The notes under the pieces were generated by a model. It saw only the letters and a program-made list of their open reading frames with translations. It did not search any database and was not told the DNA's origin. Below, one piece after another: positions 1 through 19,783 of a stretch of 24,156 nt of DNA (within the stretch, counting starts at the first letter, position 1; each line of letters opens with the position of its first letter). The stretch is taken from contig JASEGJ010000016.1 in the NCBI GenBank assembly GCA_030018135.1, forward strand, positions 1 through 24,156. Direction: 5' to 3'. Source of the stretch: Candidatus Hodarchaeaceae archaeon. GTDB taxonomy: Archaea > Hadarchaeota > Hadarchaeia > Hadarchaeales > Hadarchaeaceae. The translations under genes and the position numbers were made by a program.

Positions 1-427
1 CAAGCGAGGCGACCGCAGCGATCACGGTCACGACATGCCCATACTCTTGCACTAGAATCATTGTCGTGACGATGGCTCCCGGCCCTGTGAGCAAGGGCGT
101 ACCGATGAGCGCGATCGCTGGCGAGTACCTGAATCTGCCGCGAGCTGGCGAGAAGCCGAGCACGAGCTCAATTCCTAGAATGGTCAGGACTATCCCTCCC
201 GCGATCTTCAGCGAGGGGAAGTCGATCCCGAAAACGGAGAGGATGCCCCTGCCGAAGAACAGGAATACGAATAGCACGATGGCCGCGGTCCCCACGGCAT
301 GGATGGCGGCGAGCCCCTTTTCCCTGCCGCCCATATTTTTGGTCAGGGAGATGAAAATGGGCATGCTCGCAAATGGGCCCATTATCACAAACAGCGAGAG
401 GGATGACTTTAGGATCTCTTCCAACAT
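1..427 (-). CDS. MarC family integral membrane protein (partial; 3' end runs off the window)
   Basis: Not in the ORF track. Manual minus-strand translation from ATG at 427 gives MLEEILKSSLSLFVIMGPFASMPIFISLTKNM...PAIALIGTPLLTGPGAIVTTMILVQEYG. The N-terminal 'LFVIMxP...PIF' and the 'PLLxGPGAI' segments are MarC-like. Confidence 0.85.
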   Translation of the reverse strand, partial: MLEEILKSSLSLFVIMGPFASMPIFISLTKNMGGREKGLAAIHAVGTAAIVLFVFLFFGRGILSVFGIDFPSLKIAGGIVLTILGIELVLGFSPARGRFRYSPAIALIGTPLLTGPGAIVTTMILVQEYGHVVTVIAAVASL

Positions 428-499: not shown

Positions 500-610
500 T
501 GGCGCCGGGGGTGGGATTTGAACCCACGCTGCGCGTGAGCGCAAACAGGTTAGCAACCTTTGGCGGGCCCAAGTTAGGCCTGTCGCCTTACCTGGCTGGG
601 CCACCCCGGC
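500..610 (-). tRNA. tRNA-Ser(GCT) with a 22-nt intron at non-canonical position 28/29 (intron at 560-581); CCA encoded
   Basis: Acceptor stem GCCGGGG/CCCCGGC, discriminator G, CCA, T arm GTGGG-TTCAAAT-CCCAC, long variable arm TGCGC-TCAC-GCGCA. Removing AGGCCTAACTTGGGCCCGCCAA gives anticodon arm ACAGG-TTGCTAA-CCTGT. Confidence 0.9.
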
Positions 611-634
611 GCATTTAAACTTTTGCTTCGCAGT

Positions 635-641
635 TATTTAA
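635..641 (-). promoter_or_regulatory. Putative TATA box for tRNA-Ser
   Basis: TTAAATA on the minus strand, 25-31 nt upstream of tRNA position 1. Confidence 0.45.
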
Positions 642-775
642 CTCAACCGCCTCTTTGACCGGTGGTAGGTGGCAAATTCCATGCCTTTTAAGTTACTTTC
701 GGTGACCTCTTCCCCAATAGGCACTTATGTACCATCATTTGCCTTTCATTTGAATCCATAAAACTGGGTGGTCGA

Positions 776-1419
776 ATGGAGGTTACACCAGAACTTGCCG
801 AACTCTTTGGGGCTTACGTGGGGGACGGAACAATGAGTGCTACCAAGAGTGGAAAACTAAAACTGTCGATAGCGGCTAGCAAAGATGAAAAAGGATGGCT
901 GGACTATCTGGCATCTCTTTTTGAGCAGGCATTTTGCCATCACCCAAAAGTTCTGTGGAATTCAAATGTGTGGTAATGGACGCTAGTGTGGGTGCCATTC
1001 AAAAAGCGTTTTTAAGGGGGTACTTTGATGCTGATGGTTATCTGTCTTTTAAAAAAGGAAGGCAAGACAGAAGCGCGGAATTCAAGAAGATCCATCATTA
1101 TTACCCCCAAATCTCCCTCTGCTCAATTTCTAAAGAGTTGATTATTACAGATATCGAGCACATGCTGGAATCTATGGGCTTCTGCTACAACATTTATGAG
1201 GTGGCACCGAATGGGAGAGGGAAAAACAAAAAATATCTTGCCACGATAAACGGTGCTACCCAACTCAAGTTGTGGATGAAAGAGATAGTGTCTTCGAACC
1301 CTGTGCACTCCAGCAAATATGAAGTCTGGAAAAGATTCGGATTTTGCCCGCCCAGAACTACACTTGAACAAAGAATAACGATTCTCTCCGGGCGACTTGA
1401 TCCAGAAATTTTCTACTGA
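776..1419 (+). pseudogene. Free-standing double-motif LAGLIDADG homing endonuclease, split into 776-976 and 976-1419; probably internally deleted or frameshifted
   Basis: Motif 1 ELAELFGAYVGDG in the 66-aa ORF and motif 2 AFLRGYFDADG in the second ORF. The ORFs join through a TAATG stop/start overlap at 974-978. The DNA is visibly AT-richer than the flanking genes, and no intein splice residues or host gene are present. Confidence 0.8.
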
Positions 1420-1424
1420 GAAGG

Positions 1425-1736
1425 GGCGGCGAGCACGCACGAAGTGGACGCCTTCCCCGCGCGTCGATTGCTGACCCCGATCTCCATCCCGTGATCCGCA
1501 AGCGCCGCACGTCCTGCCTACCCTCGCTGACTTCCGCCCCTAGGGGATTCGACAGGTGAAGGTGGTTCACCCCAGCCCTACGACCGAGGCCCCACCACCG
1601 CCGACCCTGCGGGACAGGACTTCTTCGTCGGAAGCCAGGTCGGCGCGCAGTTCCGAACGCCGCCCTCGAGCTTCGGCCCACCGTAAACCCCATTTGTGGT
1701 ACAGAGGAGGGGTATCCCTCCACCTAGCTCGCCGCC
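1425..1736 (-). ncRNA. ffs: Archaeal signal recognition particle RNA (7S SRP RNA)
   Basis: 312 nt. Helix 1 GGCGGCGAGC/GCTCGCCGCC; Alu domain with a TGTA motif and complementary loops ACCCC/GGGGT; helix 8 AGG-GGC-GGAA-GTC-AGC (SRP54-binding motif with GNRA loop). Confidence 0.93.
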
Positions 1737-1751
1737 AACTAAAACTTGGTG

Positions 1752-2699
1752 TCAGTAAATAAGCGTTTTTCGCTGTTTTTCTAGTCCGAGTTTTTTCAGA
1801 AGCTCGCAGCTCTTGCAGACGTTCGTCGATGTCGGCTCGCCGCAGACCTCGCACCTCCTCATCTCGAACTCCGGCACGCCCCTGACGACTTGGGGCTTCA
1901 GGCGGTCGAACATCCGCAGGATCATGAATTTGGAGTTCGGATGATTTGCCTCGAGGTTGTTCAGAAAGTCCCGGATCTCGATGTGGATGCCGCCAGCGTA
2001 GGGGCAGACCGCGAGGTGCACCCTCAGCTCCCGAAGCAAGGCGTAGAGCGCGACCTCCTTCTCGGGTATCTCGCGGAGGGGTTTGATGCGCGGCACGAAT
2101 CCCTCGCGCGGCGAGTAGATCGGGCCGAGGCGATGAAGTCTGGAGAGGTCCGCTCGGACATAGTTCAGCATTATCGCCTGTACTTCATCATCGAGGTTGT
2201 GCGCCGTCGCCAGCTTGTCGGCGCCCAGCTCACGTGCAGCTTGATTCAGCAGCGAGCGCCGCATCACCCCGCAGTAGGTGCATGGGTTCAAGCCAGTTTT
2301 GCGGCGCTTGGCGAGGCGAACCATCCGATCGAGCGTCGCGCCGAAGGCGTCCTCGAAGTTGACGACGAGGTGCCTAACGCCGAGTAACTCGGCATTTTCC
2401 TTCGCGATCGGCAGGCTGCGGTCTCGATACCCCTTTATCCCCTCGTCTATAGTTATCGCCGCAAGCTCGCAATTTCTCAGCCGGAGATGCTCGGCCAGCA
2501 TGTGCAGGCAAACTACGCTATCCTTGCCCCCGGAAACCGCGACTGCTATTCGCTCGCTTGGCGCGATGAGCTTGTGTTCGGCGATCGCCCTGCGAAATCT
2601 CCTTTCCACGCTTTTAACCAAGCACCTATCGCAAAGCAGCACGCCCGCGTAGTGGCGATCGTAAACCGCCCTCCGCCCGCAGAGGCTGCACCTGAGCAC
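1752..2699 (-). CDS. ttuA: tRNA 2-thiolation enzyme, TtuA/NcsA/Ncs6 family
   Basis: PP-loop SGGKDS, N-terminal CSLC...CDRC and C-terminal CEVC...CKSC zinc fingers, central CTYC and CPY cysteines, ATAHNLDDE motif. Confidence 0.92.
   Translation of the reverse strand: MLRCSLCGRRAVYDRHYAGVLLCDRCLVKSVERRFRRAIAEHKLIAPSERIAVAVSGGKDSVVCLHMLAEHLRLRNCELAAITIDEGIKGYRDRSLPIAKENAELLGVRHLVVNFEDAFGATLDRMVRLAKRRKTGLNPCTYCGVMRRSLLNQAARELGADKLATAHNLDDEVQAIMLNYVRADLSRLHRLGPIYSPREGFVPRIKPLREIPEKEVALYALLRELRVHLAVCPYAGGIHIEIRDFLNNLEANHPNSKFMILRMFDRLKPQVVRGVPEFEMRRCEVCGEPTSTNVCKSCELLKKLGLEKQRKTLIY
1756..1771 (-). promoter_or_regulatory. Putative BRE/TATA promoter of the SRP RNA gene, inside the last codons of ttuA
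   Basis: Minus strand GAAAAACG-CTTATTTA; the TATA-like part is 20-27 nt upstream of the predicted SRP RNA 5' end. Confidence 0.5.
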
Positions 2700-2915
2700 T
2701 CAACCACCAGTGACTATGGGTATTATCTCCACGAGGTCGCCATTAGCAAGGCGCTCCCCCTCGGCCACTATCTTGCCGTCGCGCCTGGTCGCGACCACCT
2801 CCGGGTTATAACCGAGCGACCTCAGCAGGTCGGTGACCCTAGCTCGCGCCTGCAGCCTGAGCCTTCGCGTGCCCCTCTGGCCGAACACCCTAACGGTGAC
2901 CGTGATGCGGGCCAA
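2700..2915 (-). CDS. Ubiquitin-like sulfur carrier, MoaD/ThiS/SAMP family (TtuB/SAMP2-like)
   Basis: 71 aa ending IIPIVTGG (diglycine); GGTGA RBS 4 nt before TTG; stop codon abuts the ttuA start. Confidence 0.9.
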   Translation of the reverse strand: MARITVTVRVFGQRGTRRLRLQARARVTDLLRSLGYNPEVVATRRDGKIVAEGERLANGDLVEIIPIVTGG

Positions 2916-19688: not shown

Positions 19689-19783
19689 AGCCCCGGGCGG
19701 GGATCGAACCCGCGACCTTCGCCTTACCAAGGCGACACTTTTGGTCCGCCCTGAGGGCGGTCTACCAGCTGAGCCACCGGGGC
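19689..19783 (-). tRNA. tRNA-Thr(GGT) with a 22-nt intron at non-canonical position 22/23 (intron at 19740-19761); CCA not encoded
   Basis: Acceptor stem GCCCCGG/CCGGGGC, discriminator T, anticodon arm TCGCC-TTGGTAA-GGCGA, T arm GCGGG-TTCGATC-CCCGC. BHB motif GC-TGGT-AG|A-CCGCCC-TCA-GGGCGG-ACCA-AA|A-GT. Confidence 0.93.

Follow-up and report, generated by a model that had tools for sequence, protein, structure and literature searches.

Results and discussion

Organization of the locus

Between a serine transfer RNA (tRNA) gene and the signal recognition particle (SRP) RNA gene, a contig of Candidatus Hodarchaeaceae archaeon carries the remains of a LAGLIDADG homing-endonuclease gene preceded by a leader (contig JASEGJ010000016.1 of assembly GCA_030018135.1; positions 1 to 24,156 of its forward strand, the whole stretch analysed, are hereafter called the window). 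Leader and gene (611-1426) are probably the decayed copy of a selfish cassette of approximately 0.8 kb, consisting of a divergent-promoter leader and a gene for a monomeric LAGLIDADG protein with two motifs. The genome of origin (G000; 1.1 Mb in 45 contigs) is 93% complete. The following features make up the locus (nt, nucleotides; bp, base pairs):

503-610, minus strand: tRNA-Ser(GCT) gene, 108 nt including its intron (Rfam tRNA, 43.1 bits).
560-581, minus strand: bulge-helix-bulge (BHB) intron of 22 nt, between tRNA positions 28 and 29 (pair counts of alignment A4).
611-775, no strand: cassette leader, a putative divergent promoter region.
776-976, plus strand: N-terminal piece of the LAGLIDADG pseudogene, 66 codons with the first motif and a premature TAA at 974-976.
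969/970, plus strand: junction of a 97-bp deletion (DNA alignment with metagenome contig L062; contigs of runs X2, X3 and X4).
970-1419, plus strand: C-terminal piece of the pseudogene in another frame, with the second motif, the conserved C-terminal tail and the TGA at 1417-1419.
1420-1426, no strand: what is left of the original SRP/tRNA-Ser spacer, 7 nt (from filled sites compared with empty ones).
1427-1734, minus strand: SRP (7S) RNA gene (Rfam RF01857, 147.4 bits against a gathering cut-off of 96.5; full model, 1-317).

The LAGLIDADG gene is divergent from the tRNA-Ser gene and convergent with the SRP RNA gene: the end of its open reading frame (ORF) points toward the SRP RNA 3' end and the leader touches the tRNA 5' end. 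Its AT-richness, remarked upon in an earlier note made from the sequence alone, is borne out by a GC content of 0.40-0.47 across 601-1425, versus 0.56-0.69 in the RNA genes and approximately 0.6 in neighbouring genes; the distance from its stop codon to the SRP RNA 3' end, given there as 5 nt, has to be corrected to 7 nt when the Rfam boundary is used. A TATA-like octamer precedes the tRNA by 24-31 nt, and T/A-rich boxes precede the LAGLIDADG ATG by approximately 15-34 nt; these would be the promoters of the cassette.

The tRNA gene is not called by ARAGORN in default mode, and the tRNA-Trp proposed by the same program with its intron option was rejected as a miscall, Rfam and hand reading being relied on instead. 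By hand, an anticodon GCT (552-554), a long variable arm and, 5' within the anticodon stem, the 22-nt insert can be read, and the exons agree with the intron-less tRNA-Ser(GCT) genes of relatives. Rfam, this reading and the BHB alignment described below thus all uphold the tRNA-Ser(GCT) with a 28/29 intron announced in the earlier note.

A LAGLIDADG gene broken by a single deletion

The C-terminal piece matches PF14528 (LAGLIDADG_3) over 925-1416 with 37 bits (cut-off 22.5), close to the 36.2 bits of an intact orthologue (P0019), whereas the N-terminal piece reaches 18.3 bits with PF03161 (LAGLIDADG_2), under the cut-off of that family. Both the window pieces and the intact orthologues possess the two LAGLIDADG motifs with their acidic residues, and the motifs are conserved across 12-13 homologues. 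A protein search returned 18 homologues of 169-274 amino acids (aa; 16 of them 225-274 aa; best E = 2.8e-86), one of which is named as Hadesarchaea. All along this family, a C-terminal tail of approximately 45 residues is strongly conserved across phyla.

Compared with these homologues, the window copy lacks approximately 30 residues of the first domain. Indeed, its first frame (frame A, 776-976) closes at the TAA 974-976 after 66 codons, and the remainder, down to the TGA 1417-1419, lies in a different frame. The DNA alignment with contig L062, which carries an intact orthologue of 246 aa and a near-identical leader of 165 nt, contains one 97-bp gap at 969/970 (the columns averaging 89% identity, gap counted), that is, a loss of 32 codons plus one base and hence a frameshift. 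The 97 additional letters are present at precisely 969/970 in contigs of three public sediment runs (X2, X3 and X4), each of the public runs listed containing at most 0.14 of the window and none being listed as a source of RNA. The gene is therefore a pseudogene, killed by a single 97-bp deletion: the earlier note had the family right, but what it took for one gene at 776-1419 is not a single open frame.

The fold of the intact protein is that of known homing endonucleases. An AlphaFold model of the intact homologue P0003 (predicted local distance difference test, 79; predicted template modelling score, 0.80) displays the double-domain alpha-beta-beta-alpha-beta-beta-alpha fold, from which the window copy misses 32 first-domain residues, and its top Foldseek matches are exclusively LAGLIDADG enzymes of archaeal intein or intron origin (7qsu, 1dq3, I-Tsp061I 2dch and I-DmoI; E down to 3.9e-11). 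A Protein Data Bank sequence search with the C-terminal piece gave 0 matches at E up to 10, an NCBIfam search nothing meaningful, and no second copy was found in the window's own genome with either the C-terminal piece or P0019 as query. LAGLIDADG_3 domains also occur within ORFs of 830, 1261 and 1671 aa on contigs C4, C5 and C17 of this genome, where they are probably inteins.

The window gene lies in neither an intron nor an intein, having its own start and stop and lying between two RNA genes of the opposite strand, tRNA and SRP RNA, that are both complete. A group I intron was considered and rejected because no Rfam intron match exists in 400-1800; the archaeal group I introns reported in the available text of Nawrocki et al. 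are all within ribosomal RNA (rRNA) genes (PMC6125680). On these grounds, the free-standing status attributed to the gene in the earlier note holds.

An insertion in an ancestral tandem of RNA genes

The locus was compared among 41 genomes of the same order, and the distribution of the gene was established over 65 species genomes of this order. The arrangements encountered in the first sample were the following:

SRP RNA found: 39/41 genomes.
tRNA-Ser(GCT) after the SRP RNA on the same strand, spacer of 3-10 nt: 12 genomes.
tRNA-Ser(GCT) after the SRP RNA on the same strand, spacer of 45-102 nt: 12 genomes.
LAGLIDADG coding sequence in the spacer: 4 genomes (G000, G002, G005 and G022).
Gap filled by unrelated genes: 3 genomes.
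tRNA-Ser not seen adjoining the SRP gene: 8 genomes.

An SRP RNA gene followed, after 3-10 nt, by tRNA-Ser(GCT) is the ancestral tandem of the order, and the cassette sits exactly in its spacer. Filled alleles retain 2-6 nt of the old spacer at the SRP 3' end, and their leader extends to the first base of the tRNA. Wherever both neighbours are on the contig, metagenome loci bearing a gene of this SRP type show one uniform order (tRNA-Ser, leader of 62-165 nt, ORF, SRP 3' end), with the SRP 3' end 5-20 nt past the stop; in L071, the ORF overlaps the SRP gene. No systematic base difference between filled and empty alleles was detected in the SRP 3' end or in the tRNA 5' end.

A 1990 paper by Haas et al., to judge from its title, reportedly describes linked 7S RNA and tRNA-Ser genes in Methanothermus fervidus. 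The two genes would thus adjoin in another archaeal lineage, which supports the tandem as the ancestral state; unlike in the window, no endonuclease gene is reported there, as far as the title tells. As regards the unrelated genes, the SRP/tRNA-Ser gap holds an ORF that resembles a nucleotidyltransferase in G023 (179 aa, L023 970-1506), and a transporter-like ORF of approximately 288 aa in G031 and G028 (L042 and L043, ~630-1495), these names being taken from the translations.

The four filled spacers form a decay series. That of G000 measures 816 nt and that of G002 853 nt, the latter with two frameshifts, whereas G005 (268 nt) keeps only the C-terminal 46 codons and G022 (253 nt) the N-terminal 45 codons joined to the last few. 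In the larger sample, tblastn detected the SRP-type gene in 7/65 species genomes: full-length and open in G047 and G050, broken in G000 and G002, and as fragments in G005, G022 and G041. A 24-codon remnant in G042 brings the carriers to 8/65, 2 of them intact. The site is fixed, all eight carriers having the gene or its remains at the SRP/tRNA-Ser spacer, and the distribution is patchy: the carriers belong to one family, within which genus g7 counts 2 among 14 genomes, and in the SRP RNA tree they are scattered among non-carriers, so that well-supported branches force at least four changes and parsimony gives eight.

Five of the 16 long spacers of gene-free genomes (G006, G009, G015, G017 and G060) are homologous to cassette leaders, the score being reached by 0/60 shuffles in each of the five; to judge from this likeness, these genomes are probably ex-carriers. 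Eight other long spacers were rejected as footprints, since they share only TATA-like words with the leaders (p = 0.1 to 0.82), and those of G001 (p = 0.017), G059 (0.067) and G038 (0.6, not significant) were not counted either. In sediment runs X1 and X2, filled-type contigs occur together with contigs that join position 610 of the window directly to 1421-1426.

Two genomes of the same genus, one empty (G014) and one filled (G047), differ by a swap of allele. Their flanks are very similar (91.3% identity over the 300 nt upstream of the SRP gene, 97.4% within that gene and 98.5% over the 200 nt that follow the tRNA), against 76.5% for the tRNA-Ser gene itself, and 5 of the 9 SRP mismatches fall within the final 35 nt of that RNA gene. 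In G014, 4 nt separate the SRP gene from a tRNA that has no intron; in G047, the intact cassette lies between the two, and the tRNA-Ser is another allele, interrupted by the 28/29 intron. L141 matches G047 exactly across the SRP/tRNA-Ser locus compared. A break repaired on a foreign template that bears the cassette would be expected to leave such a pattern, here seen in a single pair that allows either direction of change.

Introns of the tRNA-Ser gene

The 28/29 intron of the window forms a BHB with a 4-bp central helix, two flanking bulges of 3 nt and an intron hairpin. Over nine homologous pre-tRNAs, this pairing is respected in 81/81 cells, with compensatory changes in three of nine pairs, and drops sharply once the partners are slid; the outer exon helix is not evident, which corresponds to the relaxed BHB form. 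A three-base repeat allows the intron boundaries to slide by up to 3 nt, and it is the BHB that sets them at 560-581.

Homologues of this intron were found in 16 species genomes. It stands alongside the gene or its remains in G000, G002, G041, G042, G047 and G050, as well as on contigs L062, L063, L064 and L071, whereas G005, G022 and L066 combine gene or remains with the canonical 37/38 intron only; beside the intact cassette of L063, the tRNA-Ser(GCT) (9-136, minus strand) possesses both. An anticodon-arm intron is thus present in all 8/8 genomes with the gene or remains, and on five further contigs where the tRNA is visible. The 28/29 intron exists without the gene in 10 of the 16 genomes having it, i.e. 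G011, G012, G020, G058 and six genomes of a sister family (f2). In that family it is present in 6/6 genomes; their tRNA-Ser is not beside the SRP gene, and the SRP-type gene was not found in any of the six. Conversely, G015 has a cassette-leader footprint beside an intron-less tRNA.

Since the intron is found without the gene, and a footprint beside an intron-less tRNA, the 28/29 intron is independent of the cassette, than which it is older and wider, and with which it is able to ride. Indeed, the intron can travel with the cassette by linkage, because all eight carriers bear an intron and because cassette and intron vary together between G014 and G047. The earlier note called for endonuclease and intron to be compared for co-occurrence; across these genomes the two do not share their presence and absence: every carrier has some intron, but the 28/29 intron is gene-free in most of the genomes that have it.

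Between G042 (L249) and G047 (L222), which belong to different genera, the tRNA-Ser gene and its 26-nt intron are 99.1% identical, compared with 73-75% for the flanks and 70% for the leaders, a likeness that suggests a recent exchange of the tRNA allele alone.

Homologues at the ends of other stable-RNA genes

A wider scan of metagenome and genome collections, based on two protein motifs only, yielded 160 loci from Hadesarchaea, several DPANN phyla and others. Abutment on an RNA gene is a family-wide feature of these loci: ARAGORN and an SRP profile placed an RNA gene at most 30 nt from the ORF end in 108 of them, the stop codon being inside the RNA gene in 78, and Rfam, applied to 40 unresolved loci, added five, for a total of 113/160 in which the ORF ends inside a tRNA or SRP RNA gene or at most 30 nt from one. 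Approximately five more are cut by contig ends. Upstream of the ORF, within the same 30 nt, no RNA gene was found (0/160). The enrichment of homologues beside tRNA and SRP RNA genes that the earlier note looked for is therefore real, and restricted to the downstream side. At L077, for instance, the first base of a tRNA-Arg directly follows the last conserved codon, and the frame closes in the D arm.

In the protein tree (a quick IQ-TREE tree, row L182 left out), partner RNAs are clustered by clade, with 57 changes versus 87.8 in shuffles. SRP-type proteins form one clade (98% support), the sister clade of which lies tail to tail with tRNAs. Introns are present in 58/95 abutted tRNAs versus 38/73 other tRNAs of the same loci (p = 0.27), and 37/95 abutted tRNAs have none.

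A partial copy (13-33 nt) of the near end of the abutted RNA gene is located 100-250 nt upstream of the ORF, significantly so in 17/98 loci. Each such copy resembles what would remain of the original RNA gene end had the cassette supplied a substitute for it. In SRP-type loci no significant duplicate of this kind was detected upstream of the ORF, and therefore this 'replacement RNA end' architecture is not borne out for the SRP-type clade. Examples of partial copies are found at L077 (2372-2395), L069, L093, L121, L140, L155, L210 and L212.

Several single loci deserve mention. Truncated by the start of its contig, a family paralogue (39-41% identity) occupies 98-600 of L060/L011 (contig C7 of G007), and 10 nt after it comes a 94-nt tRNA on the same strand, called SeC(TCA) by ARAGORN. 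At L200 (2347-3279), ARAGORN predicts a tRNA-Ala with an 841-nt intron spanning the whole endonuclease ORF, which may be an artefact of the intron option. At L073 (603-798, minus strand), Rfam reports an RT-16 RNA match (74.6 bits) approximately 1 kb from the endonuclease gene. Searches of the openly accessible literature, supplements aside, turned up no account of LAGLIDADG genes that lie against tRNA or SRP RNA genes in Archaea.

Intronless homing and its alternatives

Taken as a whole, these data are likely to reflect intronless homing, in which the cassette enters the SRP/tRNA-Ser junction and co-converts the tRNA before undergoing fixation and decay. The intact protein would be an active endonuclease cutting the cassette-free junction, which comprises approximately 25 conserved bp made of two RNA-gene ends. 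The break would be mended from a cassette-bearing allele, with the SRP gene and the 3' part of the tRNA as homology arms, and this repair would copy the cassette in and co-convert the adjacent tRNA-Ser allele along with any BHB intron. Carriers would be immune, their site having been split by the insertion; once fixed, the gene would decay, and in the window it was killed by the one 97-bp deletion. As the position of the cut, the junction itself is favoured because what the insertion interrupts is a conserved stretch formed by the ends of two RNA genes, and because the ends of filled and empty alleles show no systematic difference; in view of the latter, the splitting of the junction would be the simplest source of immunity.

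Several observations weigh against this explanation. The position of the gene is the one thing that designates the junction as the presumed target, and a cut inside the tRNA fits the G014/G047 tract, which takes in the whole tRNA to the T arm, equally well. An intron in every gene-bearing allele would also be predicted by intron-based immunity: among family genomes without the gene or its remains, 5/15 are intron-less (first sample, tRNA read) versus 0/8 carriers, a contrast with a nominal p of ~0.05 between related genomes that are not independent. In G011, the 28/29 intron occurs with a spacer of 9 nt and without any vestige of the cassette. The empty-type joints of runs X1 and X2 are short-sided (27-38 nt) and 85% alike, and could come from other species. 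In the wider scan, approximately 42 loci have no RNA gene beside the ORF, and the 160 loci include duplicates between collections, representing 133 proteins of which 119 are different. Lastly, the window copy is dead, so that nothing is working at this locus today.

The earlier note had instead raised a collaboration in which the enzyme cuts the anticodon arm of the intron-less tRNA-Ser(GCT), 100-200 bp from its own gene, the intron protects, and both partners spread. Partnerships between a nuclease and an ORF-less intron have precedents in phages, and the presence of an anticodon-arm intron in all eight carriers and on all five further contigs, the absence of any intron-less tRNA-Ser adjoining an ORF remnant and the joint difference of cassette and intron in G014/G047 would all be explained in this way. 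Moreover, positions 28/29 and 37/38 both fall inside one 22-bp stretch of the anticodon arm, and LAGLIDADG sites measure approximately 22 bp. However, the 28/29 intron is gene-free in 10/16 species genomes, including the whole of family f2 (6/6), the gene coexists with only a 37/38 intron in G005, G022 and L066, and the G015 footprint lies beside an intron-less tRNA. Homologues, for their part, abut intron-less tRNAs in 37/95 cases with no enrichment of introns (p = 0.27), and across all clades the ORF terminates right at the border of the RNA gene, which suggests a target at that border. We thus regard such a collaboration as unlikely: the part of the idea that stands is the free-standing gene at stable-RNA loci, and the part that lacks support is immunity through the 28/29 intron, given the ten genomes in which this intron is gene-free.

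Intronless homing has also to be set against a purely vertical history, in which one ancient insertion in the spacer of the family ancestor was inherited, then repeatedly lost or eroded, with no recent mobility. Six of the eight genome copies are broken, leader footprints are widespread and SRP-type proteins form one clade, all of which agrees with such a relic. Nevertheless, seven family genomes have spacers of 3-10 nt and no footprint, carriers are scattered in the SRP RNA tree (at least four supported changes, eight by parsimony) and intact copies persist in two genomes and several metagenome contigs; in addition, G014 and G047 have different tRNA alleles between flanks 91-98% identical, which deletion would not yield. 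Inheritance without mobility consequently seems quite unlikely. That the protein or the cassette promoters serve the host, for example in the expression or processing of the neighbouring stable RNAs, is highly improbable: the leader does appear to give tRNA-Ser its own TATA-like box once severed from the SRP promoter, and the C-terminal tail is strongly conserved across phyla, but the gene is a pseudogene here and in five other genomes of the order, most genomes are without it, partner RNAs vary between clades, and in fold and catalytic motifs the protein agrees with active homing endonucleases.

Known systems and significance

The closest parallel to intronless homing at an RNA-gene junction is phage T4 SegB, a free-standing GIY-YIG homing endonuclease located in the T4 tRNA gene cluster, which, according to the available text, recognizes a conserved tRNA-gene motif and promotes the inheritance of itself and of the tRNA genes around it, recipient markers being lost (PMC2330249). 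Both systems have a free-standing nuclease gene lodged at tRNA genes; the intronless homing with co-conversion seen in SegB is what is proposed for the archaeal cassette. SegB differs by its GIY-YIG family and by acting in phage co-infection, whereas the window family is LAGLIDADG and inhabits archaeal chromosomes, at an SRP RNA/tRNA junction.

Like the archaeal enzymes I-DmoI, I-Tsp061I and PI-PfuI, the window family has a monomeric fold with two motifs and their acidic residues. These enzymes target conserved stable-RNA or housekeeping genes; they ride in a spliced rRNA intron or in an intein, whereas the window gene stands alone and needs no splicing. The conserved tail of approximately 45 residues in the window family is a further difference.

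An association of introns with mobile elements has been described in Caldiarchaeum subterraneum, where, in a natural population, one allele of tRNA-Thr has an additional intron and is linked to the insertion of a mobile element (Sugahara et al. 2012, PMC3293823). There also, in the text available, recombination is proposed to bring in the intron along with the element; the element differs in being 1.8 kb long, with a predicted recombinase and att-site integration (PMC3293823). The words LAGLIDADG and homing are absent from the text of that article (PMC3293823).

We would tentatively propose that the pseudogene belongs to a large, apparently unpublished family of LAGLIDADG cassettes, which may home at the ends of stable-RNA genes and may carry or co-convert replacement parts of these genes, BHB introns included. 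It has long been asked by what route the tRNA introns of Archaea come to occupy unusual positions and what makes their distribution so patchy. If the proposal is true, homing-endonuclease traffic would be an engine for the spread of non-canonical tRNA introns, and the same traffic would drive the turnover of tRNA alleles between genera and produce the tRNA fragments left over in Archaea. Intronless homing, known from phages, would be extended to LAGLIDADG enzymes of archaeal chromosomes, with the borders of stable-RNA genes as a preferred niche, and a new set of rare-cutting nucleases directed at RNA genes would be gained. The locus itself offers a natural test bed, as intron, tRNA and SRP gene are seen with an intact cassette, a dead one, a footprint only or no cassette.

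Other features of the window

Beside the SRP RNA gene lies a gene resembling PP-loop 2-thiouridine synthetases of the TtuA/NcsA type (1752-2699, minus strand) and, directly upstream of it, a gene for a 71-aa ThiS/SAMP2-like protein with a Gly-Gly end (2700-2915, minus strand); the two look like a sulfur-carrier pair for tRNA thiolation. A second tRNA gene of the window (19689-19783, minus strand; Rfam, 52.6 bits) is missed by default ARAGORN and, judging by its length of 95 nt, probably has an intron.

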